Source: Dehalococcoidia bacterium (GTDB lineage: Bacteria > Chloroflexota > Dehalococcoidia > UBA6926). From it: a DNA stretch of 64,000 bases. The notes under the pieces are model-generated. The model worked only from the letters and a program-made list of their open reading frames with translations, had not been told where the DNA came from and ran no database searches. The DNA is taken from the NCBI GenBank assembly GCA_965237465.1, contig OZ250138.1:1340110-1404109 (forward strand). The letters run 5' to 3'. Each line of letters starts with the position of its first letter. Position 1 is the first letter of the stretch. Both the position numbers and the translations under genes were made by a program. Below, in pieces: positions 7,603-59,858 of this stretch.

Positions 7603-7752
7603 TGTCAACCTAGACACCCCTTTCCATCTCCCATAGTGCTGATAGATCATACATACTATAGAACATGTGTGGCAATGTCTGGAGCAGTTTGGAATTAAAT
7701 CAGCGCTCCCTTGACACCCTATCCGCGCCCCCCATCCCCTATCATTAGCGCC

Positions 7753-9516
7753 ATGACCACCCCACACACCAACAAACTCCACTTCGGTGACAATCTCCCC
7801 ATCATGCGGGAGCACATCCCCGATGAGTCCGTCGATCTCATCTACCTTGATCCGCCGTTCAACTCCAACGCCACCTACAACATCCTGTTCCGCGAGCGCG
7901 ACTCCTCAGAGTCCGCCGCCCAGATACAGGCCTTCGACGATACATGGCACTGGAATACGGATGCTGAATGGCAATACCAACAGACCGTGACTAAAGGCCC
8001 CCGCAGACTCGCCCAAATGCTTGAGGCTATGCGAACGTTCCTCGGCCAGAACGACATGATGGCCTACCTGACCATGATGGCCCCGCGTATGGTGGAACTC
8101 CATCGCGTCCTCAAGCCCACCGGCAGCATCTACCTCCACTGCGACCCCACCGCCAGCCACTACTTGAAGCTGCTGCTTGACGCGGTGTTCGGAGCTGCAA
8201 ACTTTCGTAATGAAATCATTTGGCGTCGGACTGGCACGCACAACAAAATACAGCGTTTTGCTCCGATCCATGACACGATCTTGTTCTACGCGAAGAGTGA
8301 AGCGTACCAATGGCAAAATATTAAAAGGCCCTACATGAGCGGTCATGTTCAAGAATACTTCGTAGAAGATTCCCAAGGGTGGCGAACCAATTACTACGGG
8401 AATGTGCTGACGGGGTCAGGCACAAGGAATGGAGAATCCGGAAAACCCTGGATGGGTTTCGATCCAAGTGCGAAAAATCGACATTGGGCAATTCCCCGCA
8501 GACTGTTGCAGGATGTGGACGAGGATCTGTCGACGCTATCGCAACATCAAAAGCTCGACCGACTTTACGAGTTGGGCTACATCAAGATCCAAGAAGGCCA
8601 AGCTTGGCCAGTATATGAGCACTACATTGCACCAGACGACGGTCAACCTGTTCCCGATATATGGGCATACCAGCCCTACACGGACGGATCGGTCTTTGGG
8701 AGTGAGAGTGGAATCGACGCAGATGTGCGTTGGCTGTCACCAACTGACCAAGAGCGCCTCCATTACCCCACCCAGAAGCCCCAGGCCCTGCTTGAACGCA
8801 TCATCTCCGCGTCCAGCAATGAGGGCGATATCGTCCTTGACCCATTCTGCGGTTGCGGCACCGCCATCGCCGCCGCGGAGCGACTGAAGCGCAAATGGAT
8901 TGGCATCGACATCACCCATCTCGCCATCTCTCTCATGCGCAACCGACTGCGTGCCTTGCCAGTGGATCGCCTGTCCGACTATGAGGTCATCGGATCTCCT
9001 GCGGACGTTGAGAGCGCCCGCGCCCTCTCCAGGGAGGGCGGCAACACGGGCCGCTACCTGTTCGAATACTGGGCCCTCGGCCTTGTAGAGGCCCTCCCCG
9101 CGCGTGACATGAAAAAAGGCGCTGACGCAGGAATCGATGGCTACATCAACTTCTTCGACGGTAAATCTACCAAGGCAAAGACCGTAATTGTGCAGGTCAA
9201 GAGCGGTAAGGTGGGCAGCAACATAGTCAGAGACCTTCGTGGCGCGATGGAGCGCGAACGAGCGGAAATGGCTTTGCTCATCACACTTGAGCCACCCACC
9301 AAACCCATGGAAAATGAGGCAGTCACCGCTGGATTCTACACGTCGGAAGCCTTCCCGGCCCTCCGATACCCTCGCGTCCAGATCGCCACCATCGAAGACA
9401 TCCTCACCGGCAACGGCCCCCAAATACCCCGAGGACTAGGCCTCTCCGAAGACCCCACATTCCGCCGCACCCCCCGCCAACGCCGGGCGCAGGGCAGTTC
9501 CCGGCGGATGATTTAG
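7753..9516 (+). CDS. beta-class N6-adenine/N4-cytosine DNA methyltransferase fused to a C-terminal Mrr-like (PD-(D/E)xK) restriction endonuclease domain
   Basis: DPPF motif (LIYLDPPFNS) near the N-terminus and a later YPTQKP...DPFCGCGT SAM-binding region, the order typical of beta-class MTases (PF01555-like). C-terminal about 120 aa (GADAGIDGY...VIVQVKSGKVGSNIVRDLRGAME...ALLITL) match the Mrr catalytic fold (PF04471-like). Start at ATG 7753 chosen by alignment with the paralog at 58395..59858. Alternative ATG at 7711. Confidence 0.8.
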   Translation: MTTPHTNKLHFGDNLPIMREHIPDESVDLIYLDPPFNSNATYNILFRERDSSESAAQIQAFDDTWHWNTDAEWQYQQTVTKGPRRLAQMLEAMRTFLGQNDMMAYLTMMAPRMVELHRVLKPTGSIYLHCDPTASHYLKLLLDAVFGAANFRNEIIWRRTGTHNKIQRFAPIHDTILFYAKSEAYQWQNIKRPYMSGHVQEYFVEDSQGWRTNYYGNVLTGSGTRNGESGKPWMGFDPSAKNRHWAIPRRLLQDVDEDLSTLSQHQKLDRLYELGYIKIQEGQAWPVYEHYIAPDDGQPVPDIWAYQPYTDGSVFGSESGIDADVRWLSPTDQERLHYPTQKPQALLERIISASSNEGDIVLDPFCGCGTAIAAAERLKRKWIGIDITHLAISLMRNRLRALPVDRLSDYEVIGSPADVESARALSREGGNTGRYLFEYWALGLVEALPARDMKKGADAGIDGYINFFDGKSTKAKTVIVQVKSGKVGSNIVRDLRGAMERERAEMALLITLEPPTKPMENEAVTAGFYTSEAFPALRYPRVQIATIEDILTGNGPQIPRGLGLSEDPTFRRTPRQRRAQGSSRRMI

Positions 9517-12793: not shown

Positions 12794-13267
12794 TCAGTTC
12801 TCGCCGTAGCGTCTGGGGCCACTGCCCATCTGGATCTCATAAATCACGTGTGATTGGCGATCAAACGTCGCCTTGACCCACATGCCCTCTTTCATCCAGT
12901 CATACGCCCCACGGCGGGCGGGCACGGGGTCCAGTCGATATCTGATACCGCTGATGACGATGACAAGCACGGAATTGTAGCGCGGCTTTGACCACCCGCC
13001 CGATGCCTCCTGCGGGGCCTCAATGTCCTCAACGGTCATGCGATCGATTCGGCCCTCAAGCTCCGCAGGCTCCAGGAGCGGCGGAGCGGGCAGCGGCGGC
13101 GGCGGCAGCTCCGGCCGCGTCCGACGGAACACCGTCAGCAGGCCATACCCGAAGAGGATCGGCACGGCGAACAGCAAGAACAGATGGAGCTGTCCTGTCA
13201 GGAGTACAAAGAACGCCGTAAAGACGACGATTGTCAGAATCACATAGAAGCGGAATCCACCGGACAT
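12794..13267 (-). CDS. hypothetical membrane-anchored protein
   Basis: Start set at ATG 13265-13267 (MSGGFRFYVILTIV...). Two TM helices, then a Pro-rich stretch (PELPPPPLPAPPLLEPAE) and a ~90-aa soluble domain. Confidence 0.5.
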   Translation of the reverse strand: MSGGFRFYVILTIVVFTAFFVLLTGQLHLFLLFAVPILFGYGLLTVFRRTRPELPPPPLPAPPLLEPAELEGRIDRMTVEDIEAPQEASGGWSKPRYNSVLVIVISGIRYRLDPVPARRGAYDWMKEGMWVKATFDRQSHVIYEIQMGSGPRRYGEN

Positions 13268-13369
13268 AGAACTACGCTCCCCTAAACGGTTGCCCTGGCC
13301 CCGCGAATCGCATCGCCTCGCGCAGCTCGCGTCGAGAGGCGGCATATCCGCGGCGCCGCTATAGTAGCG

Positions 13370-14614
13370 GTGATGGTTGCCGCCACCCCATTAGCCGTTT
13401 CACGCGCCTCGGACCCATACCGGTTCGTCATTTATGCCCTCGTGGTATTGATGAACTTCACGCTGGGGCTCACGTTTCTTGCGCCGGCCTCCCTCTTGCC
13501 CTTGATCACGGATGAATACGGCCTGTCCCATTCGGGCGGCGCATTTGTTGTCACGAGCATCACTCTTGTATTCATGGCCGGCAGCCTTCCTGCCGCCATC
13601 ATAGTCTCACGGTGGAACATTCGCGCGGTCTACGGCATTGGCTGGGCGCTCATGGGCTGCGCTGTGCTGACTCCGTTCCTGGGCGGCTTCTGGGCCCTCA
13701 TCGGCATCCGCTGCGTTCAGGGGCTCGGCGCGTCCGCTCTGACACCGCTGACCGCCGCCATCATCATGCGATGGGCGCCGGCGCGGGAGGTGCCGATCGT
13801 CAACGCCTTAGCCCTTGCCACGTTGACGGTCGGCCTTGGCGCGTCCCTTTACATAGGACCGATTCTCGCAGGCAGGGTTGGCTGGGAGTGGGCCATCGGC
13901 ATTGAGGGACTTATTGCCATTGTCGGGGCTGCCCTCTGGTTCGTCCTCTGGCGGAAACGGCGGGTGGAGGGAACAGTCGCGGCGGAACCCGTCACGATGA
14001 CCGCCATCGTCTCCGTACTTCGTCGCCGTGAGACGTGGCTCCTCGCGATTGCCGTCATCGGCCCCTGGGCTCAATTCAACACGCTCAGCACCTTCCTGCC
14101 GACGTACTTTCAAGAGGTGCGAGGACTCAGCCTGCAGTCGGCGGGAAGCCTGGCGGCGATCTTCGCCTTCGCCGGCATACCCGCCAATATCCTCGGCGGC
14201 TTCATTGCGACAATCACGGGGCGCAGACGGCCCATACTGATTTGGTCGGGCTTATTCATCGGCGCGGCAGGCATGGCGATCCTATACGCGCCAGTCGGAA
14301 TCATCCTCTTAATCGCGGTCGTAACGGCCGGTTTCCTTCAGTGGGTGTATGAGCCGACGTTATTCACTGTGCCGATTGAACTACGGGGATCGTCTCCCGA
14401 GCGCGCCGGAGCCATTTGGGCGGCTATTCTCACGACCGGCAACGCATCCAGCTTCGTCGCCCCCGTCGTAGCCGGATACATCATTGATGGAACCGGCAGC
14501 TTCATCCTGGGCATCGGGAGCATCGCCGCGTTCTCATTCACAATGTTCTTTGCCGCCCTGTTGTTGCCGGAAACCGGGCCGGGCAGACTCAACGCCCCCA
14601 ACCCTGTCAACTAA
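13370..14614 (+). CDS. MFS transporter
   Basis: 414 aa, 12 predicted TM helices, typical MFS loop between TM2 and TM3. Confidence 0.8.
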   Translation: MMVAATPLAVSRASDPYRFVIYALVVLMNFTLGLTFLAPASLLPLITDEYGLSHSGGAFVVTSITLVFMAGSLPAAIIVSRWNIRAVYGIGWALMGCAVLTPFLGGFWALIGIRCVQGLGASALTPLTAAIIMRWAPAREVPIVNALALATLTVGLGASLYIGPILAGRVGWEWAIGIEGLIAIVGAALWFVLWRKRRVEGTVAAEPVTMTAIVSVLRRRETWLLAIAVIGPWAQFNTLSTFLPTYFQEVRGLSLQSAGSLAAIFAFAGIPANILGGFIATITGRRRPILIWSGLFIGAAGMAILYAPVGIILLIAVVTAGFLQWVYEPTLFTVPIELRGSSPERAGAIWAAILTTGNASSFVAPVVAGYIIDGTGSFILGIGSIAAFSFTMFFAALLLPETGPGRLNAPNPVN

Positions 14615-17866: not shown

Positions 17867-19506
17867 ACATCGACGCCGTTTCGCTGGAAGTCTTTCGTAA
17901 CCTTTTCGCCTCAATCGCAGAGGAGATGGGCGTAGCGCTCGGCCGAACAGCGTGGTCGCCAAACATCAAAGAGCGTCGCGACTACTCATGCGCGATATTT
18001 GACGCCAGCGGCAGGCTCATCGCTCAGGCGGAACACATTCCGGTGCACCTCGGCGCCATGCCCGCGTCCGTGCAGGCCGCCATCGAACGCTTTGACTCCT
18101 TTGAGCCGGGCGACATCATCGCCTTGAATGACCCGTATCTGGGCGGCACCCACTTGCCGGACCTCACGCTGATCTCGCCAACATTCGCGCCGTCCGAGCC
18201 ACATGATGGAGGCTCGGACGCGCTGGCCGGATTCGTAGCGACGCGCGCGCACCATGCCGACGTGGGCGGCATGGCCCCCGGCTCCATGCCCTCCTCCACA
18301 ACCATCTACCAGGAGGGCTTTATCATTCCGCCGATACGCCTCTCCCGCGCAGGCGTCATGAATGAAGAGGTCATTGAGCTGTTCATGCGCAACGTGCGCA
18401 CACCGGAGGAGCGGCAGGGGGATCTAGCCGCCCAGATCGCCGCCAATCACGTCGGTGAGACGCGATTCACCCAACTGATTTCCCGATACGGCAGTGAGAC
18501 CGTCGATGGCCATGCGGACGCGCTGATCGCCTATGCGGAGAGAATAGTTCGACATGCTCTGCGAAGCATCCCCGCGGGCGCCTACACGTTCGCCGACACT
18601 ATGGAGCCGCCAACGCCGGACTCAGACCCGCCCCGCATCGCTGTCACCATTACCAGCGATGGCGAAGGTTCCTTGACGGTGGATTTCTCAGGCACGTCGC
18701 CGGAGCAGCCGTTGAGCAATATCAACGCCGTTCGAGCAGTGACGGTCTCCGCAGTGCAGTACTGCGTACGATGCCTTGCTGGTCCGCGCGCGCCCGCGAA
18801 TCACGGCTCATTCGCCTCCGTAAACGTCATCACGCCGGAGGGATCCCTCGTGAATCCCCGACCACCTCGCGCCGTCGCGGCCGGCAACGTCGAAACGTCG
18901 CAGCGCATCGTTGACGTGGTGCTGGGCGCGCTTGCACCCGTTCTTCCGGACATTATTCCCGCCGCAAGCCAGGGCACAATGAACAACGTGACCATCGGAG
19001 GGACGGACCCCCGCACTGGCCACCCATTCGCCTATTACGAGACCCTTGCCGGCGGCGTCGGGGCCGGTCCTAACGGATCGGGCGAGTCCGCCATTCATAG
19101 CCACATGACCAACACGATGAACACGCCGGTCGAGGCGCTCGAGTTTCAGTTCCCGTTTCGCGTTATTGAATACGGGATCCGCCGCGAATCAGGCGGCGCG
19201 GGGAGATTCCGGGGCGGCGACGGACTGATAAGGACAGTCGAGTTTCTCGCGGACGCAACTGTTTCTCTCCAGACGGAGCGCCGATCTCAAGGACCGTGGG
19301 GCCTCGCAGGGGGCGATGACGGCGCGCCCGGACGCAACTCATTGCGTACAATAGAATCGCAAACGTATGATTCGATTCCGGCGAGCACGACGCTCAATGT
19401 TGCCGCCGGGGACTCGCTTCGGATTGAGACGCCGGGCGGCGGCGGATGGGGGCAACCTCAATCACCGCCCACTGACGAGGAGGGAATCAACCGCAGCCAT
19501 GACTAG
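17863..19506 (+). CDS. hyuB: hydantoinase B/oxoprolinase family protein, B subunit
   Basis: GTG start at 17863 overlaps the hyuA TGA (GTGA). Translation VNIDAVSLEVFRNLFASIAEEMG... is typical of hydantoinase_B. Confidence 0.85.
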   Translation: MNIDAVSLEVFRNLFASIAEEMGVALGRTAWSPNIKERRDYSCAIFDASGRLIAQAEHIPVHLGAMPASVQAAIERFDSFEPGDIIALNDPYLGGTHLPDLTLISPTFAPSEPHDGGSDALAGFVATRAHHADVGGMAPGSMPSSTTIYQEGFIIPPIRLSRAGVMNEEVIELFMRNVRTPEERQGDLAAQIAANHVGETRFTQLISRYGSETVDGHADALIAYAERIVRHALRSIPAGAYTFADTMEPPTPDSDPPRIAVTITSDGEGSLTVDFSGTSPEQPLSNINAVRAVTVSAVQYCVRCLAGPRAPANHGSFASVNVITPEGSLVNPRPPRAVAAGNVETSQRIVDVVLGALAPVLPDIIPAASQGTMNNVTIGGTDPRTGHPFAYYETLAGGVGAGPNGSGESAIHSHMTNTMNTPVEALEFQFPFRVIEYGIRRESGGAGRFRGGDGLIRTVEFLADATVSLQTERRSQGPWGLAGGDDGAPGRNSLRTIESQTYDSIPASTTLNVAAGDSLRIETPGGGGWGQPQSPPTDEEGINRSHD

Positions 19507-20095
19507 GAATCCACTCTTCCGCATCCTCTCGGGCGGCATCCTGTTGCTGTCGTTGGTGTTTGTCGCCATTGCATGCTCAACGGCGCCTGAGGAGGAGTCT
19601 GTCGAAACGTCGCCCGAGACGCCAACCGATGCACCCGCAGGGCCGACGGTCGGCGGCAGCGTCGGCGACCTCGCGCCGGACTTCTCGCTCTCTGCGACTG
19701 ACGGCCGTATGGCTTCGCTGACTGAATTCAAGCAAGCCAACCAGCCCGTTGTCGTGTATTTCTTCGCAACCTGGTGACCAACCTGTCGGTCCGAGTTGCG
19801 GGCCCTCAAGGAAATCTACCCCCAGTATTCTGATCAGGTCGCGTTTATCGGCGTCGACGTTGATCCCTCTGAGAGCGCTGAAAAGATCAGCGCATACGCA
19901 AGCGATCAGGGATACCCCTGGCCCATGGCTGAGTATGATCCCGACATCCTGGTGGACTATGGCATCCGATCCCAGGCCTCAAAAGTGATGATCGGCGGCG
20001 ACGGCGTGATCACATTCCGCGCCACGTCCAGCAAGACTCGTGACGACAAGTGGCACGAGGTGTTCCAGGAGGTCATCGCGCAATCTGCCGGATAG
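19499..20095 (+). CDS. candidate selenoprotein: TlpA/ResA-like thioredoxin-fold lipoprotein with U-P-T-C redox motif (in-frame TGA at 19775-19777)
   Basis: ATG 19499 (GAGGAGGG 15 nt upstream) overlaps the hyuB stop. Signal peptide MTRNPLFRILSGGILLLSLVFVAIAC. Codons around the TGA read VVVYFFATW-TGA-PTCRSELRALKE, the position where thioredoxin-like proteins carry WCPxC. The same frame continues 106 codons to TAG 20093-20095 (...GYPWPMAEYDP...VMIGGDGVITF...). Confidence 0.65.
19788..19804 (+). promoter_or_regulatory. candidate SECIS-like hairpin (GGUCCG-AGUUG-CGGGCC), starting 11 nt after UGA 19775
   Basis: 6-bp stem (one G-U pair) with a 5-nt loop. Position relative to the UGA matches bacterial SECIS placement. 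Also present in the paralog with a compensatory change. Confidence 0.4.
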
Positions 20096-20230: not shown

Positions 20231-21163
20231 TTGCATACAGAAAATCGCGAAATGACAAGCGCACAAATGTCCTCCGTCCTGCGCTCTTTCATGCGATGGC
20301 GGCGTCCGGGGATCATCACAGTTGCGCTCATTATCGTGGCCATCGCCGCGGCAGCAGCAGGATGCACGACCGCCGTGCAGACTTCGCCGGACGACAGCGG
20401 CCGGACGACGCTTGCGCCCACGTCCCAGGTTCAGATCACCACCTTGCCCGCCCCGGTAACAGGAGAGCAGGAGCCCGGAGACTCCGCCGCCTCGCCGACG
20501 GTCTCTCCAATGACCCCAACGCCCCCGACCGGGCAACGCTCAACCGCGGTCGCACCGGAACCGGCGGCCACCGATTCAAGCGGCGCCGGGAGTGCGGAGC
20601 CGACGGAGACGCCGGCGCTCCCAACGGCCACGCCCGCAAACGTCCCTGTGGAACCGTCCCCAACGAGCATCCCCCCGCCGCCGACAGCAACAACTGCCCC
20701 ACCCACCTCCACGCCAATTCCACTGCCGACAGGTCATCGCGTCGGCAACAGCGCCCCTGATTTCACGGTGGAAACCGTTGATGGCGTGACCGTCTCTCTA
20801 ACTGACTACAAGCAGGCCAACCAGCCCGTCGTTGTCTACTTCTTCGCAACCTGGTGACCAACGTGCCGGTCCGAGTTGCGGACCCTCAAGGACGTCTATC
20901 CCGACTACGCCGATCGCGTCGAGTTCATCGGCGTGGGCACGGATTTTGGGGAATCCGCAGCCGACGTGCGACGCTTTTCCAATGCGGAAGGCTACCCGTG
21001 GGACATGGCGCCGTGGGAATCATCCATCGTCGCCGACTATCGAATACTGAGTCAGTCATCCAAGGTAGCCATTAACGGCGACGGCGTCATCACATACCGC
21101 AGCGGATACGGCAGTCTCTCCTCCCGTGACTGGCGCAACATCTTCGAGGACCTGCTCGACTAG
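20231..21163 (+). CDS. candidate selenoprotein paralog: TlpA-like thioredoxin-fold lipoprotein with U-P-T-C motif (in-frame TGA at 20855-20857); start uncertain
   Basis: Signal peptide ...ITVALIIVAIAAAAAGC. Long Pro/Thr/Ala-rich linker, then HRVGNSAPDFTVETVDGVTVSLTDYKQANQPVVVYFFATW-TGA-PTCRSELRTLKD... continuing in frame to TAG 21161-21163. 5' end could be ATG 20231, 20252, 20267 or 20291. Confidence 0.6.
20868..20884 (+). promoter_or_regulatory. candidate SECIS-like hairpin (GGUCCG-AGUUG-CGGACC), starting 11 nt after UGA 20855
   Basis: Same stem-loop as at 19788, but the G-U pair is replaced by a U-A pair (G to A in the 3' arm). Confidence 0.4.
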
Positions 21164-21281: not shown

Positions 21282-24200
21282 CTACTCATTCGGCTCGAAC
21301 ACCAGCTCCGGGATCACGACTTCCCAAGAATCGCACTGTAGGCGGTCCCGGTACTCAGGCTCCGAACGCTCACGGTCCCAGCCAGCGATGGCGAAGACCG
21401 TGGCATACGAGCAGCGCATGCCAGACGGCGGCTCGAAACCACCGGCAAGCTGTCCCACCACCGTCCCGTTGCGATCCAAGAGCTCCCACCGACTTGACCT
21501 GAGCCGCAAATCCAGCAGATCGCCCGGCGAGAGCGAGGCAATGGCGTGATGAACCGGATGGCCTGAGGCTTGGTATCCCGCATAGCTCAGAAAGACGTCG
21601 CTCAGGCTGAGTCGCCGATAACGGCGAGCGAGTTCCGGCGCAGGCGGCGGAAGGTTGAGGGGCTCCCGGCGCAGCACCGATGGCGCCGCCCGCAAGGCGC
21701 CCTGGAGCGGGTGCGCCCGTGCAAAGCTCGCGAGGGCTAAAGTCTGCCGCGCACGGGTCATGGCCACGTAGTACAGTCGGCGCGGGGCATCCGCATCCCC
21801 GTCGTCGCCAATGCGATCCCAGGCTCCGTCCAGCACAATCACGTGGTCGAACTCCAGGCCCTTGGCGCGATGGGCGGTGAGCAGCAGCAGCCCGCGTTGG
21901 CGGCGCCGTACTTCCCGCGCCCACTCGGCCAGCCATTCAATGCACGCATCAACCGGTGTTTCGGCGCCTCCGGTTTCCATCGCGTACTCGGTTATCGCTT
22001 CTTGAAGCAGTTCAATCCAGGGGCCTGGAGATTGGTTGCCCACCCAGTCATTCAGATCCCCGCTCTTCACCAGGAGGGAATCCCGCCCACGCAGCCAGTT
22101 CACAAGAGCCCTGGTCTCACGCAAATGCCAGATGCCGGTGAAATCCTCGTTTGCCATCTGCACGGGGATACCCTCAAGTTCGCAGAGGCTGCGCACCGCA
22201 TCCAGATAGCTCCATTCACGCGCCACCACCGCGCAGGCGGACCACTCCCAGTCAGGAGCGAGGCCGGACAATCGCTTCAATTCTGCGACGACCACCTGTG
22301 CTTGGGAGATGGGAGTGTCGCCCGTCTGTAGTATTTGGACCTGGCCACGAGCCACCGGGTCTATGGTGGTCCACGCGCCGCCGGGCGGGTCCTTCGTTCG
22401 ACTCTGGTTTACGCCGATGGGATGCCCGGCCTTCATTCGGCCCCGAGCCGGTTCAATCACAGCATTGGCCGCCTTGATGATGTGCCCTGTGGAGCGATAG
22501 TTGTCTGTCAGGAAGGCGGGCTTTGCGCCATAATCCTCTTCGAAGCGCTGGATAAACGCCGGTGACGAGCCATTGAAGGCGTAGATGTTCTGGTCATCGT
22601 CGCCGACGGCCAGCAGACCGAGCTTGTCGTCCGGATCGGAAAGCGTTCTGCCTGCCAAGGCGGAAATCAGCTCATATTGATCCGGGCCAATGTCCTGGTA
22701 CTCGTCCACCAGAATCCATCGGAACCCCGACAACAGTCGTTCTCGATACTCGTCCGCTTCATCGGGCGGCAATCCTTCTCCTCGCAACATAGCCGTCGCC
22801 TCCTGAAGCAACTTCTGGAAATCCGTGTCCTCCGGACGATTGGCAGGCCCCGTGAAACTGGCGCCCACCAGCCGCATGGCGAGGGCGTGACAGGTGAGCA
22901 CGATCACTCCGCGGGCGTCGTCGCCTATCAGCTCTGCGAGGCGGCGGCGAATCTCGACTGCGGCATGCCGGTTGTAGGCAAGGGCCACGATGGAGCGGGG
23001 ATTCTCTCGCTTGACCCGTATCAGATAGGCGATGCGATGCACCAACACCCGCGTCTTGCCTGACCCGGGACCGGCCAGCGCCAGCACGTTCGTCTGTTCC
23101 CGGTCGTCCGTCACAATGCGGCGCTGGTCAGGATTGTTCAGGCTTTCGACGATCGTTCGCCACGATTCCGGCGTGGTCTGCCGCGATGTCTCCCTCTCTC
23201 GATCCGGCAGCCAGCGGCGCAGAAAGTCTTCTCGACGACTGCTGAAATAGTCCACGATCAGGCGTAGGGCATCGGCCATGGCCTGAAGCCCCCGCCGTAC
23301 GAACTCCGCCATCACGTGGATCTGCAGCACCTGTTCGTCGTAATGGAGCTTGAGGGATGCAAAGTCGGTCTGGGCAAATCCGCGCCTCTCCGGCTTCAAG
23401 CGGATGGTCATAGCCGGGCGGAAAACTGCCAGGCCCTTGTTCAGCCGAATGACCTCTTGCTCATGCAGCCAGAGCAGGGCGCGATCCATCAGCTTGGCGG
23501 GAGCCCTGTCGGTGCTCCCCAGCAACATGTCAGACTTGATCGCCTCCAGCAGCTTGCCCAGCGTCGTCTCTGCCAGCAGGTCCGTGCCCCGACTCCCCTG
23601 AGGCAGGCATGTGAGTAGGTGCTGCAACAGCCGCCCGGCTCCTGCGCGCCGCAGCTCGGCGGTCTTCTCAAGGTCTCCCCACTCCCGCCGTAATGTGACG
23701 TAGATCGTGTCCGCATCACGCCCCCGAACGCTGAGGCTTCCCCCGTCGCCCCCATCGCCGCGCCCGTCAGCGGCAATGCTGCGGATGATGCGCCTTACGC
23801 GTTCCGGCAGCGCGTAAGAATAACCTTCGTCCTTGAGTCGTTGAGTGGCGAGGCGGAGATGCAGCGGGTAGGATTCGCCCTTGCTCATATCGGGGGCCAT
23901 CTCGCGCATGAGGGAAATCAGGCCTTGCTCCAGCGCCGCCGCCTCATCGAGTCGTCTCCGGGAGGAGTGTTCCATCCTCCCTGTATGGACAAAAGCGGTC
24001 AACACCGTATCGTTGCTGGCGATGCCTAGTCGCTCCAGGTCGTAGAGCGCGGCCCGCACTCCCTCTGAGTTCAGGCCCGACACGGTCATCAACTCGTCAG
24101 TGGTGATTCCTTCGTCCGCATTCGCCTCGATGAGCGTCTCGGAAATGGTCGCCAGCTGGCGGCGATAGGCATGGGCGATTTCGACCTTTCCAAGCTTGAC

Positions 24201-26369
24201 GCGGGCTTCTTCCTTTGAGTTCACCCGCAAGGAGGACGGGAACACCTGCACCTGGTTCTCTTCTCGGGTCAGCAGCTCGGCCTGTTCCAGCCAGGACACT
24301 GCCGTGCGAACCCGGTTGTCATCGGTTGCGGAATCTCGCACGAATGCGTTGTCGTCGTCCTCTCCAAGGATCTCGCCGGCGGTGGCGACTACTTCGCCGT
24401 CCAGGCGCCCCTTTCGATCAAAATTCCGCAGCGCCCTGAGCACTCCGTGGATTTCCCGTCGCGTGAGACGGGAACGCGCCGACATGCCGAACTGCCGCTC
24501 CACGTCGTCCGGCGTGTAGAGCAGCACACAGCGGGCCGCCTGTTGATCACGTCCGGCACGGCCCGCTTCCTGAAGGTAGTTCTCCAAAGAACCGGGGATG
24601 TCGGCGTGAATAACCACCCGTACGTCCGGTTTGTCTATGCCCATGCCAAAGGCGTTGGTGGCGACTATTGCCCGCAGATCGCCGCGGATGAAGCTCTGTT
24701 GGACATCCTTTTTGGTCTCCGACGGCAGTCCCGCGTGGAAGTAGTTCGCCTGCATCCCTTTTGCCTGCAAGAACGCCGATATCTCTTCGGCCTGCCGCCG
24801 CGTCGCGCAATAGACGATGGCGCCGCCCGGTTCATCCCTCGGCAGATCGGCCTCCAGGATCTGGTGGATATGAGCCAGCTTTTCTTCGTTGCTGGTCTGC
24901 GCCACAACAAATTCTAGGTTGGCGCGTTGGGCGCCGCCGTTGAAGACCTTCAGTTGGATGCCCAACTCTTTCCGGAAGTAGTCCACGATCTCCGTCTCCA
25001 CGTCCGGCTTGGCGGTCGCGGTCAGACACAATACGGGAGGCGGCGGTTCCGTTCCCGACCTCTCACGGATGAAGCGCCCCACGTAACGGTAATCTGGCCG
25101 AAAGTCATGTCCCCACCGTGAGAGGCAATGAGCCTCGTCCAGCACCCAGCCGCCAATCTCCCGTTGCGCCAGAACACGACGCACGGACACGCTACGGAGT
25201 TGCTCCGGAGAGATGATAAGGATGCCGGCATCACCCAGCCGCACCCGATCCAGGGCATCGGCCCGTTCCGGCATGGACAGTAGCCCGTTGATGGTGACGC
25301 AGGAATCGATTCCGCCTGCCTTGAGCCCCTCCACCTGGTCAGCCATGAGGGCAACCAGAGGCGAGATCACAACGGTCAGCGCGCCGGTCTTGTCGTATCG
25401 GGAAAGGGCCGGCAGCTGGTAGCAAAGCGATTTTCCAGCGCCGGTGGGCAGGATTGCCAGGACGTGCTCTTTGCCCAACGCCGCTTCGACGACGGACTGC
25501 TGCATAGGCTGCCCGGCATCTTCGTCCTCCGGCTCAGGCCGGAAGCTGTCAAAGCCGAACCAGCGGGCGAGCTCCTTGCGGGCATCGTGCTGTTCCCGAC
25601 ACCAGTCGCAAGCGCGATCAACGCAGGCTGTATCGCGCAAACGGCGGATCAACCGCCCTGCCTCGGGAAACTGATGCCGAACCCAGGGAGGCAAGACCGA
25701 ATTGCCCCCGGACACCGACAGCCACGCCAAGGCGTATGCAAGCGCCCACCCGTACTTGCCTACATCCTCCATGACCTCGCGCGTGTGCGTCTGGCAGGCG
25801 TTTCCGGTCAGACGTCTGCGAATCGCATCATGCGCGTCCGCGTCGGATGGCTTTGGCGCACCTCGTATTGACGTGAATATCTGGTCGAATCCTGCGCCAT
25901 CATCCGCGCTGGTCAGCCAATGCCAGGCCATCAACAGGTCCGCTTCACCATCGCTCAGCGCCCTTTGCTGATTCTCGAATACCTCGAGCGTCAGTCTCGC
26001 ATCCAGTTCCGGATCGTTAATGCGCCCACGTTTAAGTTGTCCGTCCTGGTAATGCTTCACCAGGTGGTGATAGGGGTTGCGGGGGAAGGCCAGGGGATTA
26101 AGTCTAAGCGTGTCCACTGCCGGCAGCCGCAGTAACCGCAAGCTGGGATTTGCGGCTTGAAGGTGGGGCACATCGAAATCTACCAGATTGTGGCCCAGCA
26201 GAAAGTCCGCTCCATCGGCAAGGGCGTCCAGATCGACCAAAGCCTGGTCAAGGCTGCTGCCTGTTCGGGGGAACGTCAGGGACTGATCAGTATCCGGGCG
26301 CACTCCCGCGAATGCGTGGATGCGGCTGTCCCGGACCCCGACTTCCAGATCCACCGACAGGGGCCGCAA
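21282..26369 (-). CDS. giant multidomain protein: DEDDh 3'-5' exonuclease + RecQ-family SF2 helicase + UvrD/PcrA-family SF1 helicase
   Basis: 1695-aa uninterrupted ORF (TTG start at 26369; no ATG/GTG further upstream in frame). Residues 1-150: DnaQ-like exonuclease motifs (SVDLEVGV, GHNLVDFDVPHL). Residues ~290-640: RecQ motifs (ILPTGAGKS, VLDEAHCLSRWGHDFRPDY, VLCLTATA, IVATNAFGMGIDKPDVRVVIH, QEAGRAGRD). Residues ~1090-1695: UvrD motifs (ALAGPGSGKT, ILVDEYQD, VGDDDQNIYAFNGS, DNYRSTGHI, LLTAHRAKGLEFDHVIVL, YVAMTRARQ). Confidence 0.85.
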   Translation of the reverse strand: MRPLSVDLEVGVRDSRIHAFAGVRPDTDQSLTFPRTGSSLDQALVDLDALADGADFLLGHNLVDFDVPHLQAANPSLRLLRLPAVDTLRLNPLAFPRNPYHHLVKHYQDGQLKRGRINDPELDARLTLEVFENQQRALSDGEADLLMAWHWLTSADDGAGFDQIFTSIRGAPKPSDADAHDAIRRRLTGNACQTHTREVMEDVGKYGWALAYALAWLSVSGGNSVLPPWVRHQFPEAGRLIRRLRDTACVDRACDWCREQHDARKELARWFGFDSFRPEPEDEDAGQPMQQSVVEAALGKEHVLAILPTGAGKSLCYQLPALSRYDKTGALTVVISPLVALMADQVEGLKAGGIDSCVTINGLLSMPERADALDRVRLGDAGILIISPEQLRSVSVRRVLAQREIGGWVLDEAHCLSRWGHDFRPDYRYVGRFIRERSGTEPPPPVLCLTATAKPDVETEIVDYFRKELGIQLKVFNGGAQRANLEFVVAQTSNEEKLAHIHQILEADLPRDEPGGAIVYCATRRQAEEISAFLQAKGMQANYFHAGLPSETKKDVQQSFIRGDLRAIVATNAFGMGIDKPDVRVVIHADIPGSLENYLQEAGRAGRDQQAARCVLLYTPDDVERQFGMSARSRLTRREIHGVLRALRNFDRKGRLDGEVVATAGEILGEDDDNAFVRDSATDDNRVRTAVSWLEQAELLTREENQVQVFPSSLRVNSKEEARVKLGKVEIAHAYRRQLATISETLIEANADEGITTDELMTVSGLNSEGVRAALYDLERLGIASNDTVLTAFVHTGRMEHSSRRRLDEAAALEQGLISLMREMAPDMSKGESYPLHLRLATQRLKDEGYSYALPERVRRIIRSIAADGRGDGGDGGSLSVRGRDADTIYVTLRREWGDLEKTAELRRAGAGRLLQHLLTCLPQGSRGTDLLAETTLGKLLEAIKSDMLLGSTDRAPAKLMDRALLWLHEQEVIRLNKGLAVFRPAMTIRLKPERRGFAQTDFASLKLHYDEQVLQIHVMAEFVRRGLQAMADALRLIVDYFSSRREDFLRRWLPDRERETSRQTTPESWRTIVESLNNPDQRRIVTDDREQTNVLALAGPGSGKTRVLVHRIAYLIRVKRENPRSIVALAYNRHAAVEIRRRLAELIGDDARGVIVLTCHALAMRLVGASFTGPANRPEDTDFQKLLQEATAMLRGEGLPPDEADEYRERLLSGFRWILVDEYQDIGPDQYELISALAGRTLSDPDDKLGLLAVGDDDQNIYAFNGSSPAFIQRFEEDYGAKPAFLTDNYRSTGHIIKAANAVIEPARGRMKAGHPIGVNQSRTKDPPGGAWTTIDPVARGQVQILQTGDTPISQAQVVVAELKRLSGLAPDWEWSACAVVAREWSYLDAVRSLCELEGIPVQMANEDFTGIWHLRETRALVNWLRGRDSLLVKSGDLNDWVGNQSPGPWIELLQEAITEYAMETGGAETPVDACIEWLAEWAREVRRRQRGLLLLTAHRAKGLEFDHVIVLDGAWDRIGDDGDADAPRRLYYVAMTRARQTLALASFARAHPLQGALRAAPSVLRREPLNLPPPAPELARRYRRLSLSDVFLSYAGYQASGHPVHHAIASLSPGDLLDLRLRSSRWELLDRNGTVVGQLAGGFEPPSGMRCSYATVFAIAGWDRERSEPEYRDRLQCDSWEVVIPELVFEPNE

Positions 26370-52142: not shown

Positions 52143-52155
52143 GGTGGACAGCGTT

Positions 52156-52193
52156 TGCAGAGGCGTTGTGCGTGTGGCGCAGGGCCTTTGGCG
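52156..52193. repeat. perfect 14-bp inverted repeat hairpin (TGTGCGTGTGGCGC...GCGCCACACGCACA) with 10-nt loop
   Basis: Arms 52156-52169 and 52180-52193 are exact reverse complements. Sits between two oppositely oriented REP-like copies. Confidence 0.85.
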
Positions 52194-52199
52194 CCACAC

Positions 52200-52225
52200 G
52201 CACAGTCATTCGTCATTCCGGCAAA
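52200..52225 (+). repeat. REP-like palindromic element copy (cgtcATTCCGGCaaaaGCCGGAATtc)
   Basis: Preceded by a tandem duplication of GTCATTC (52194-52200). Confidence 0.7.
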
Positions 52226-52263
52226 AGCCGGAATTCATGTCCTCGCTTCGTAGATCCCGCCCT

Positions 52264-53367
52264 TCAACCCTCGTACACGCTCGTGTCCGGGAAGAGATCA
52301 ACCCATGCGAACCAGAAGGATGGAGTTGCGGGGAACTGGGTGAGGCGCGCGCCAGTCAACGGTCCGCCTGTCGCTTCCCCGCCGGAGGTCGTCCACATGC
52401 TGCCTGTCTCGGCGTCCCGCATCAGAAGACTCTTGTCACCGGAATCCTCAACACTTTCGAAGGTCAACAGCCTGCCATCAAGAGTCCGGCGCCAGGCCAC
52501 CGCTGCGCCCGCCGCGGCATCATATGTGACGACGATGTCCTCATCGCCAAGCGTGTCGTTCACGATGGGCGACTCAATCAGCGCAGCATACGGGTAGGCC
52601 CGTTTGGCTGTCCCGACCTCCAGCCCCAGGACAAACTCCTTGGCGGCGAGACGGTCATCCTGAACCAGTCGCCCCAGGACGCCGGACCGCGAGTCAGCGT
52701 AATAGGAGTCATATGTATCCACTCGGTAGAGGCCCTGTTTGTCCAGCACGAGGGTCTGCGGATACAATTCCTCCCACGCCTCCCACGCCATGAGCCGCGA
52801 CGGGATCAGGTCAAGAACGGCGCCTTCATGCGAGCCAGCAATGGCCCTGCCATACGCCTGGCTCCACTCGGAGTCCGTCTGGTCATCAAACATCACCAGG
52901 TTGTTGAGGATCAGCTTTCCGGAGACGCCGAAGGTCAGCGTGTCGCCGTCCACCTCTCGGCCATACACGATGGCCGTGTAGCACAGGGGTCACCACGTAA
53001 CGGCGATGGGCGCGCCACCGAGGACGTCATTGACGATCTCATGCCTGCTGAGCATGGCCGTGGGATAGGCGCGCGCCTCGCCGTCGATCTCCACGCCGAT
53101 GACCGGCTCCTCCGCCTCCATCCACGCCTCAGCGTCGGCGGCGTTCACGAACTCCGGATCTCTGATCGCGGGAATCGCGTCCTTGCTGGTCACCGTGAAC
53201 ACCTGCAGATTCCGATCAACGGCGCGCGGCGTGGCTGCCGCATCGCGCTCATCGGCAACCGGATCAACCGTATACGGAACCTCAATCTCATCCTGGCCAA
53301 TGCCGCCGGGATTGCAGGCTAGCGCGACCAGGATGGCCACGCCCACCGCAGCAATGGCGGTTGCCAT
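52264..53367 (-). CDS. candidate selenoprotein: DUF3179 family exported protein with U-P-L-C motif (in-frame TGA at 52990-52992)
   Basis: Track ORFs 52990..53424 and 52264..52968 are in the same frame, separated only by TGA. Translation ...HEIVNDVLGGAPIAVTW-TGA-PLCYTAIVYGREVDGDTLTFGVSGKLILNNLVMFDDQTDSEWSQ... spans the conserved CPLC region of DUF3179. Start at ATG 53365-53367 gives the signal peptide MATAIAAVGVAILVALAC. Confidence 0.6.
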
Positions 53368-53615
53368 CCTGCCAGCGAAGACCTGTCGCCGAGCGCCGTC
53401 AGTCAAACCATGTCTAAGTCGCATTGAACCAGTCTATCCACGAACGAAGCAGGGGACGACCAACTGCGAAACGAGGCGGATTCCTCCGGAGATTTACGTC
53501 GCAATAGGTGGAAAATGGCTTCGGATCATGTGTGCAAAGGTTGGCGGGATTTGGTAACCTAGGGTTTTCCGGCACGTCCTGCGCCGGGAGACAGCGGCCC
53601 TGTAGCACCTGGAAG

Positions 53616-58394: not shown

Positions 58395-59858
58395 CTAGCT
58401 GTTCAGCTGGGCGAGGAGATACTCTTGTGGGCGGTCACCCTTAATGCGGTTGCAATGGGAACAAAGAAGTTGGAGGTTGTCCAGGTGGTCCGTCCCGCCT
58501 CGTGAACGCGGAACGACATGATCCACTTCCATAACTTTGAATGGGAAATCCATCTTACACCCTGAGCAGCGGCCTTCCTGTTGTCCATAAAGAACGTGCC
58601 TGTTCTTGCGGTAATGGATAGGCGCGCCAATATCTGTCCGCCGCGGGATGTCTGTCCGAGCCGTTACCAACCGGTCGTGAAATAGGCCGCCCATGGACTG
58701 TCGCAGCCGGTGATTCACGAGTTCAGTCGCCTTCGGCGATATATCTACGCCAACCCATTGTCGGCCCAAGTTCTCGGCTGCCACACATGCGGTAGCGCAA
58801 CCGCAGAAGGGGTCCAGTACAACGTCACCCTCATTGCTTGAAGCGAGAATAACGCGCTCAAGCAACGCCAAGGGCTTCTGTGTTGGGTAGCCAATTCGCT
58901 CATTACCCAAAACGGGCGCAATATCATCCCACAAGTCCTGGAGGGGAACCCCGGGCATGTCCACTGCGAATTGCATTAGCCGTGGCATTCCGGTCTCCCT
59001 GTGAACCAACTTTCCGTGATTCCAGAATGCGACCAGATTAGACATCGAATACGCCCAAAATCTGCCACTGTATGGGACTACAGCCTTGTACTCCCAACCT
59101 GGCTGAGGAATTTGGAACTCGTTGCTTAGGTCGGCCATCCACCTAGTCTTCTTATGCAGGGGCCGCTTGACGTGCCATTCATATGCTGTGTCGCCACCAG
59201 GCTTTGCGGCAGTTACGTCGGTCTCTTTATACCGCCGGCCGTCAGGAGCGGTGTGTCGGTATTCTGCTTGCAAGTAATCGTCCGTGTATGACATATATTG
59301 CGGGTTCCAAGTGTATTTGTGGGCCCGTGTATAGACCAGCAAGACATCTCGTATCTTGCCCGCCCTGCGCATTCCCTGCCTTGTGTCACTGTGGGCGCTG
59401 GAGCGTTTCCATGTCATCTCATTCAGGAACAGGCGAGAGCCGAATATCGCGTCCATCAAGAGCTTGAGGTAGTGCGAAGCAGTGGGGTCGCAGTGCAGAT
59501 AGATGCTCCCTGTCGGCTTGAGAATGCGGCGCAGCTCAAGCAGTCGGACGGCCATCATGCACAGGTAAGACTGCATTCCCTTGCCGTGCGTCAGGCTGGA
59601 TGCCTCAATAGTCCGGTAGATGGCGGGCTGCTCGTCGGCAATTAGTCCCATCCACGCGACGTCAAGGTCAGAAAGCGTCCATGCGTCCTTGAATGCGGCG
59701 CCGGCTGCCTTGCTACCCACGGGCGCCTCATAGTTGCGGTTGGAATTAAATGGCGGGTCGAGGTAGATGAGGTCGACTGTTTCCGAGTTCACGCCTCGAA
59801 GGACATCCAGGTTGTCCCCCGTCCAAATTGTCCTGTTCGTAAAGTTCGGCTCTGCCAT
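58395..59858 (-). CDS. beta-class DNA methyltransferase fused to a C-terminal HNH endonuclease domain
   Basis: N-terminal MTase core paralogous to 7753..9516 (identical block SIYLHCDPTASHYLKLL; DPPFNSN; YPTQKP; DPFCGCAT). C-terminal ~70 aa CSGCKMDFPFKVMEVDHVVPRSRGGTDHLDNLQLLCSHCNRIKG = HNH motif. Lower-GC patch. Confidence 0.8.
   Translation of the reverse strand: MAEPNFTNRTIWTGDNLDVLRGVNSETVDLIYLDPPFNSNRNYEAPVGSKAAGAAFKDAWTLSDLDVAWMGLIADEQPAIYRTIEASSLTHGKGMQSYLCMMAVRLLELRRILKPTGSIYLHCDPTASHYLKLLMDAIFGSRLFLNEMTWKRSSAHSDTRQGMRRAGKIRDVLLVYTRAHKYTWNPQYMSYTDDYLQAEYRHTAPDGRRYKETDVTAAKPGGDTAYEWHVKRPLHKKTRWMADLSNEFQIPQPGWEYKAVVPYSGRFWAYSMSNLVAFWNHGKLVHRETGMPRLMQFAVDMPGVPLQDLWDDIAPVLGNERIGYPTQKPLALLERVILASSNEGDVVLDPFCGCATACVAAENLGRQWVGVDISPKATELVNHRLRQSMGGLFHDRLVTARTDIPRRTDIGAPIHYRKNRHVLYGQQEGRCSGCKMDFPFKVMEVDHVVPRSRGGTDHLDNLQLLCSHCNRIKGDRPQEYLLAQLNS

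Follow-up and report, generated by a model that had tools for sequence, protein, structure and literature searches.

A 64,000-nt stretch of DNA from a Dehalococcoidia bacterium (GenBank assembly GCA_965237465.1, contig OZ250138.1, positions 1,340,110 to 1,404,109; hereafter the window) carries two consecutive plus-strand genes, here called gene 1 (19499-20095) and gene 2 (20267-21163), in which an in-frame TGA occupies the position of the first cysteine of a thioredoxin-like active site. As judged from their sequences, they are very probably tandem selenoprotein genes, coding for extracytoplasmic, membrane-anchored thiol:disulfide oxidoreductases similar to TlpA, ResA and CcmG, with selenocysteine (Sec, U) at the first position of the CxxC motif. 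A third candidate selenoprotein gene, encoding a lipoprotein of the DUF3179 family, was found on the minus strand (53424-52264). The original prediction concerned gene 1, and neither its tandem paralog nor the DUF3179 gene appeared in it. All three are unannotated members of already known families, and no new kind of system is involved.

The two halves of gene 1 had been claimed to lie in one frame interrupted by the TGA at 19775-19777, and both coordinates and context were reproduced, in such a way that the gene reads …NQPVVVYFFATW, then TGA, and then PTCRSELRALKEIYP in the same frame (context VVVYFFATW-TGA-PTCRSELRALKEIYP). The frame beyond this TGA had been described as open and protein-like, and actually 105 sense codons separate it from the TAG at 20093-20095, giving a product of 198 residues counting the Sec. 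When a Cys was placed at the TGA, the Pfam domains AhpC-TSA (E=5.8e-18) and Redoxin (E=1.6e-14) aligned continuously over the site, and the AhpC-TSA scores of the two thioredoxin-like genes of the window were 65.5 and 66.6 bits, compared with a Pfam gathering cut-off of 26. Both genes show W-U-P-T-C at the redox centre, with the proposed Sec codon at the place of the first, nucleophilic Cys of WCxxC. The N-terminus of the TlpA/ResA-like (AhpC-TSA/Redoxin) product of gene 1 matches the pattern of a signal peptide with a lipobox (19499-19576; …LVFVAIA-C26), from which a lipoprotein is predicted. The gene calls published with the European Nucleotide Archive (ENA) assembly show gene 1 as two pieces of 92 and 99 amino acids, and a TTG at 19796 is a possible start for the second one, as if there were two separate small genes, one for an N-terminal and one for a C-terminal protein. 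This alternative is hardly credible, as the cut falls in the middle of the active site of a single thioredoxin fold, the alignments to Pfam and to chains of the Protein Data Bank (PDB) are continuous over the TGA, the Cys ortholog described below is one protein, and the internal TTG falls within the conserved hairpin.

Directly downstream, gene 2 encodes a tandem paralog, also with a lipobox pattern (…AAAAG-C) and with a U-P-T-C domain like that of gene 1. Its start at 20267 is taken from the public gene call, with alternatives at 20252 and 20231. The proposed Sec codon is the TGA at 20855-20857, in a context (VVVYFFATW-TGA-PTCRSELR) identical to that of gene 1, and it is likewise followed by a hairpin. 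The lipobox is separated from the redox domain by a Pro/Thr-rich linker of around 130 residues.

Orthologs were obtained by scanning a collection of species-representative genomes, which yielded 19 metagenome-assembled genomes (MAGs) of Dehalococcoidia/Chloroflexota, many of them closed chromosomes of 1.8-2.4 Mb. Hydantoinase A/B genes followed by the thioredoxin-like genes are common to the 19 MAGs, and the tandem pair is present in every one of them. The active-site TGA was found in 40 out of 40 copies from 20 genomes (two from the window and 38 from the relatives); the proteins of the relatives are only 45-62% identical to those of the window, yet the TGA is constant. As the window belongs to a long-read metagenome contig with a coverage around 9x, a sequencing or assembly error hiding a true TGC or TGT could be invoked, but its probability is negligible, because the TGA is also present in the paralog, in 19 other genomes and in an independent short-read assembly from a different strain (L026, with 31 mismatches in 968 nt), where it occupies the same codon.

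The differences among the copies downstream of the TGA were distributed as 7651, 6304 and 14099 over first, second and third codon positions, that is, third positions accumulate around twice the differences of the first or the second, and 41% of the differing codons are synonymous. These data support that purifying selection on the reading frame continues past the TGA. The length of the C-terminal part is 101-105 codons, with TAG or TAA as the stop, in 25 of 26 surveyed copies. Copy a of locus L014 (around 10133 onward) lacks the usual TAG and its frame remains open for 224 codons past the Sec codon, which may be due to a fusion of copies a and b or to an assembly error. The division of the gene at the TGA by public gene callers, together with the lack of Sec machinery within the window, would also be found in a pseudogene, produced by a nonsense mutation in a Cys-type TlpA-like gene. 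We regard this as extremely improbable: the TGA lies exactly at the catalytic Cys codon in all 40 copies of the 20 genomes, and decay would show neither downstream purifying selection, nor a C-terminal part of constant length, nor a covarying hairpin.

That the proteins are lipoproteins, as had been proposed for gene 1, agrees with the finding of lipobox-type signal peptides, by pattern matching, in all of the 26 surveyed copies except L017a, for which the automatic start gave no clean signal peptide. Fourteen of the b copies (those of L001-L008, L011-L014, L016 and L018, at about 10.8-11.4 kb of each locus, or about 2.0-2.4 kb in L007) read YFFSST-TGA-PIC, with a Thr where Trp is near-universal before the active site. 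The window copies differ from the a copies of the relatives in having Ala/Ser instead of Pro in a Q-x-S-K-V segment, which we suspect to be the cis-Pro loop of thioredoxin-fold enzymes.

The identification of the TGA with the first Cys of WCxxC was further examined by alignment with Cys-containing homologs. A word-index search with gene 1 returned a single match (P0001), close and full-length, since the database contains Sec forms as short fragments. P0001 lies in a syntenic locus (L028, 10001-10567), where a single-copy gene encodes one uninterrupted protein with TGC at the site (W-C-T-T-C), and where the sequence after the Cys codon cannot form the hairpin that starts 11 nt after the TGA in the Sec forms. 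An exhaustive HMMER search with P0001 detected 30,545 relatives, 12 of them at E<=1e-30, and W-C-x-x-C was present in every full-length top homolog inspected (among P0002-P0030). In this way, the syntenic ortholog, the close full-length homologs and the ResA/CcmG-like structures all place the TGA at the redox Cys. Several database entries end in '…ATW' or begin just past the active site, and these look like further Sec forms that were split. More distant entries (P0004 and P0089) either stop at '…FFAATW' or '…YFYATW' or join a C-terminal fragment with the N-terminal part of the following copy, which suggests that TGA-containing tandem arrays of this family could exist in other lineages too.

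The hydantoinase-B gene upstream ends in a TAG that shares bases with the start codon of gene 1 (19499-19501; ATGACTAG, 19499-19506), an arrangement that suggests co-transcription or translational coupling of the hydantoinase/oxoprolinase A/B pair with gene 1. The order hydantoinase to gene 1 is kept in both of the related loci inspected in this respect (L028 and L009).

The hairpin proposed downstream of the gene 1 TGA was reproduced at 19788-19804, where GGUCCG (19788-19793) and CGGGCC (19799-19804) enclose the loop AGUUG (19794-19798); a spacer of 10 nt (19778-19787) leaves its first base at the 11th nt past the UGA. In gene 2 the equivalent element (20868-20884) is GGUCCG/AGUUG/CGGACC, the U-G pair of gene 1 being replaced by U-A. 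In the alignment of the 40 copies, the 6-bp helix was paired in 99.0% of 210 cells, and compensatory changes were found at three of its six pairs: pair 30-44 is G-C (24), C-G (5) or U-A (5), pair 33-41 is U-A (22) or C-G (13), and pair 29-45 is G-C, A-U or G-U. The covariation score was 0.380, compared with 0.167±0.020 for shuffled alignments, and none of 500 shuffles attained it. As a control, the partner strand was slid by 1-3 nt, and pairing fell to 34-55% of the cells. Several of the compensatory substitutions also replace an amino acid (R to Q, T to N/S), so that pairing has been kept at the expense of the protein, which argues for selection on the RNA.

Bacterial selenocysteine insertion sequences (SECIS), as known from fdhF of E. 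coli and from the bSECISearch model, are hairpins immediately 3' of the UGA, with a minimal stem-loop from around 11 nt after it, G or GU in the apical loop, and 16-37 nt between the UGA and the loop. The hairpin of the window resembles this model in that it begins at +11, inside the coding region, and in that its loop AGUUG holds GU and begins 16 nt after the UGA. It departs from it in being a short 6-bp stem without a conserved bulged U, and in two further respects, the loop of some related copies and the lack of a matching Rfam model, that are considered below.

The same kind of evidence was found in a gene of a different family. A scan of the window for in-frame TGAs was very noisy at the high GC content of this genome (61.7%), and the only candidates that stood out once inspected were the thioredoxin-like pair and the DUF3179 gene (52264-53424, minus strand); the other matches were rejected as antisense shadows or as adjacent genes sharing a frame by chance. 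The DUF3179 gene encodes a protein with a lipobox signal, identified by pattern matching, and a W-U-P-L-C motif, and its match to PF11376 (E=2e-92) covers the whole profile (1-292 of 292) across the TGA. This TGA (52990-52992, minus strand; context AVTW-TGA-PLC) is present in 21 of 21 orthologs. It is followed by a 23-nt stretch (ACGGCCATCGTGTATGGCCGAGA) that is invariant in the 21 genomes, even at synonymous sites, and that can form a perfect 7-bp hairpin, a candidate SECIS with the structure CGGCCAU/CGUGU/AUGGCCG (52958-52976, minus strand), for which there is an alternative register (UACACG/GCCAU/CGUGUA). In the relatives this element extends to a long stem, with z=-3.7. Public gene calling divided the gene into two parts, and a plus-strand open reading frame (ORF) of 392 amino acids at 52144-53322 is its antisense shadow.

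The DUF3179 orthologs are located 2-5 kb from the thioredoxin-like pair in 19 of 19 relatives and in L028, and 32 kb from it in the window. In L028 the DUF3179 gene (13146-14306) keeps the TGA while the thioredoxin-like gene has TGC and lacks the hairpin, so L028 is a case of Sec/Cys interchange between close relatives, inside one conserved neighbourhood, as read from the aligned sequences. A block of around 29 kb parts the pair from the DUF3179 gene in the window, and at its left edge lies a minus-strand gene (21282-26369) for a protein of 1695 amino acids with RecQ-type DEAD/Helicase_C and UvrD-helicase domains.

The genetic code of the organism was also considered. TGA is the terminator of around 20 of the 46 long ORFs of the window and the tRNA-Trp has the anticodon CCA, from which we conclude that the code is standard. 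Nothing in the window specifically favours the idea that TGA was reassigned to Trp or Gly (codes 4 and 25) throughout the genome, and this explanation has a vanishingly small probability in view of these terminators and this tRNA, of the GC-rich genome, and of the restriction of in-frame TGAs to the redox Cys position of three genes. The presence of a redox-Cys TGA, with a hairpin in the position of a SECIS, in three genes from two unrelated families supports indirectly, but strongly, the decoding of UGA as Sec by this organism. The selenocysteine interpretation that had been advanced for gene 1 is supported by every one of the sequence-based criteria for bacterial selenoprotein genes.

Some observations weigh against selenoproteins of this type. 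Neither tRNA-Sec nor selA, selB or selD were detected in the 64 kb of the window or in flanks of 20 kb from the 19 relatives, a search that was carried out with ARAGORN and Rfam on the window, ARAGORN on the 19 related loci, NCBIfam on 10 large ORFs of the window, tblastn with SelA, SelB and SelD of E. coli against the window and all the loci, and the public gene calls, which span most of the window (around 1-22.8 and 41-64 kb); the absence of these genes from 64 kb says little for or against Sec. The gene 1 hairpin folded as a single sequence gave z=-0.55, and 62 of 200 shuffles folded as well as it did. On its own it is thermodynamically ordinary at around 62% GC, and therefore its significance derives from the comparison of copies, the lone observation being correct and not compelling. 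A permissive Rfam scan of the SECIS regions produced matches at chance level only, without any family that fits the hairpin, and the loop of the 14 b copies with Thr is AUUUG instead of AGUUG, without a G in its first two positions. Finally, no ccm, res, ccdA or DsbD genes were found in the gene calls of the window, in the ORFs scanned between them, or in L028.

Rare systems in which UGA is recoded to a residue other than Sec have been proposed from metagenomes. A hairpin-dependent recoding of this kind, either to Cys through a Sec-like tRNA and a SelB-like factor or by near-cognate read-through with Trp or Cys, would give full-length proteins free of selenium, and the TGA, the hairpin and the alignment with Cys would look identical; the Sec genes, as stated, were not detected in the window or in the flanks searched in the relatives. 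We consider it quite improbable, although less so than the other alternatives, because canonical Sec decoding is a known and widespread mechanism with exactly such a signature, the catalogue of predicted selenoprotein families includes both of these (PMC9312934), and there are Dehalococcoidia on record that possess the Sec pathway and a large selenoproteome (PMC13326102). In this respect, BSepDB, a database limited to species with the Sec pathway, lists 46 selenoprotein genes for one Dehalococcoidia MAG and 49 for another (PMC13326102). A non-Sec system such as this is not addressed in PMC5424206.

In order to place the selenoprotein candidates among known families, the thioredoxin-like domain was compared with structures and curated models. 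The best matches in the PDB were 2ls5 (1.5e-15), ResA (4nmu, 2.4e-11) and CcmG/DsbE (2g0f and 3k8n), and the U aligns with the N-terminal nucleophilic Cys in the chains of the ResA/CcmG type. NCBIfam matches were ResA, DsbE, StoA and TlpA, with scores that did not reach any of the curated cut-offs (55.2 vs 170 bits for ResA, 51.1 vs 123 for DsbE, and 27.7 vs 230 for TlpA). Because these scores are far under the equivalog cut-offs and there are no ccm, res or ccdA genes nearby, the genes were not filed as ResA or CcmG. They share with the Cys enzymes ResA, CcmG (DsbE), StoA and TlpA a membrane-tethered exported thioredoxin fold and the W-C-x-x-C centre, and differ from them in the Sec that takes the place of the nucleophilic Cys.

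Selenoproteins with a thioredoxin fold and a UxxC motif had been referred to as an established class, which is borne out by PMC9312934. The closest class is the Prx-like thiol:disulfide oxidoreductases (PF00578, UxxC/UxxU), a predicted selenoprotein family described as 'predicted with high confidence' in PMC13188914 and represented by WP_010940744.1 (PMC9312934, Table 1). The window genes were likened to this family by domain and motif: they have in common the AhpC-TSA domain, UxxC with U at the first Cys, the existence of Cys homologs and a hairpin directly downstream, and they differ in the tandem pair, the lipoprotein anchor, the long Pro/Thr linker of copy b and the Thr for Trp before U in 14 relatives. 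DUF3179 (PF11376, UxxC/T) is also catalogued as a predicted selenoprotein family (PMC9312934, PMC13188914), and the window gene, with U-P-L-C, matches it end to end and differs in no defining feature, being merely unannotated. As features specific to this lineage we note the tandem pair, the predicted anchoring of the three proteins as lipoproteins, the Thr that replaces Trp in 14 relatives and the unusually clean covariation of the SECIS.

A mechanism can be proposed from what is known of these families. The +11 hairpin would act as a bacterial SECIS that brings SelB-GTP-Sec-tRNA(Sec) to a ribosome halted by the UGA, with the insertion of Sec as the result. The pre-protein would then cross the cytoplasmic membrane in an unfolded state and receive a lipid at the lipobox Cys, remaining attached to the outer side of that membrane, where a cycle between selenol/thiol and selenenylsulfide would reduce the disulfides of exported client proteins. 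Re-reduction could be carried out by a membrane electron shuttle of the CcdA/DsbD type. Compared with Cys, Sec would confer higher nucleophilicity and resistance to irreversible over-oxidation.

Given that the three proteins are predicted to be exported and that their genes are 2-5 kb apart in the 19 related Dehalococcoidia genomes, it is conceivable, though rather unlikely, that the TlpA-like U-x-x-C pair works together with the DUF3179 U-x-x-C lipoprotein as an extracytoplasmic redox relay, based on selenium and specific to this lineage. If so, DUF3179, whose name denotes a domain without assigned function, would be a client or a partner of the TlpA-like reductases, and a thiol/selenol system at the cell surface might suit an oxic, host-associated habitat. 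Some of the related MAGs may be bins from sponge metagenomes, to judge from their names.

Regarding annotation, the three genes of the window are wrongly split in the public ENA assembly gene calls, an error that can be corrected, and a standard gene caller would likewise split their orthologs in the 19 Dehalococcoidia genomes with the same in-frame TGAs. The alignment of the 40 copies provides a clean minimal SECIS inside a coding sequence, with a covariation partly paid in amino acid changes, and it can be useful to improve models of bacterial SECIS, since around 13% of the selenoprotein entries of BSepDB have no canonical SECIS. These Dehalococcoidia appear to put selenocysteine into redox proteins predicted to be exported and anchored to the membrane, and the locus keeps a record of Sec/Cys interconversion among close relatives, as found in L028. 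Current understanding is not overturned by any of these findings.

Apart from these genes, the window contains two genes for N6/N4 DNA methyltransferases, one on the minus strand (58395-59858) and the other on the plus strand (7711-9516). One of these methyltransferases is fused to an HNH nuclease domain, with weak matches to the HNH domains of IscB/Cas9, and the other to restriction endonuclease domains of the Mrr type.

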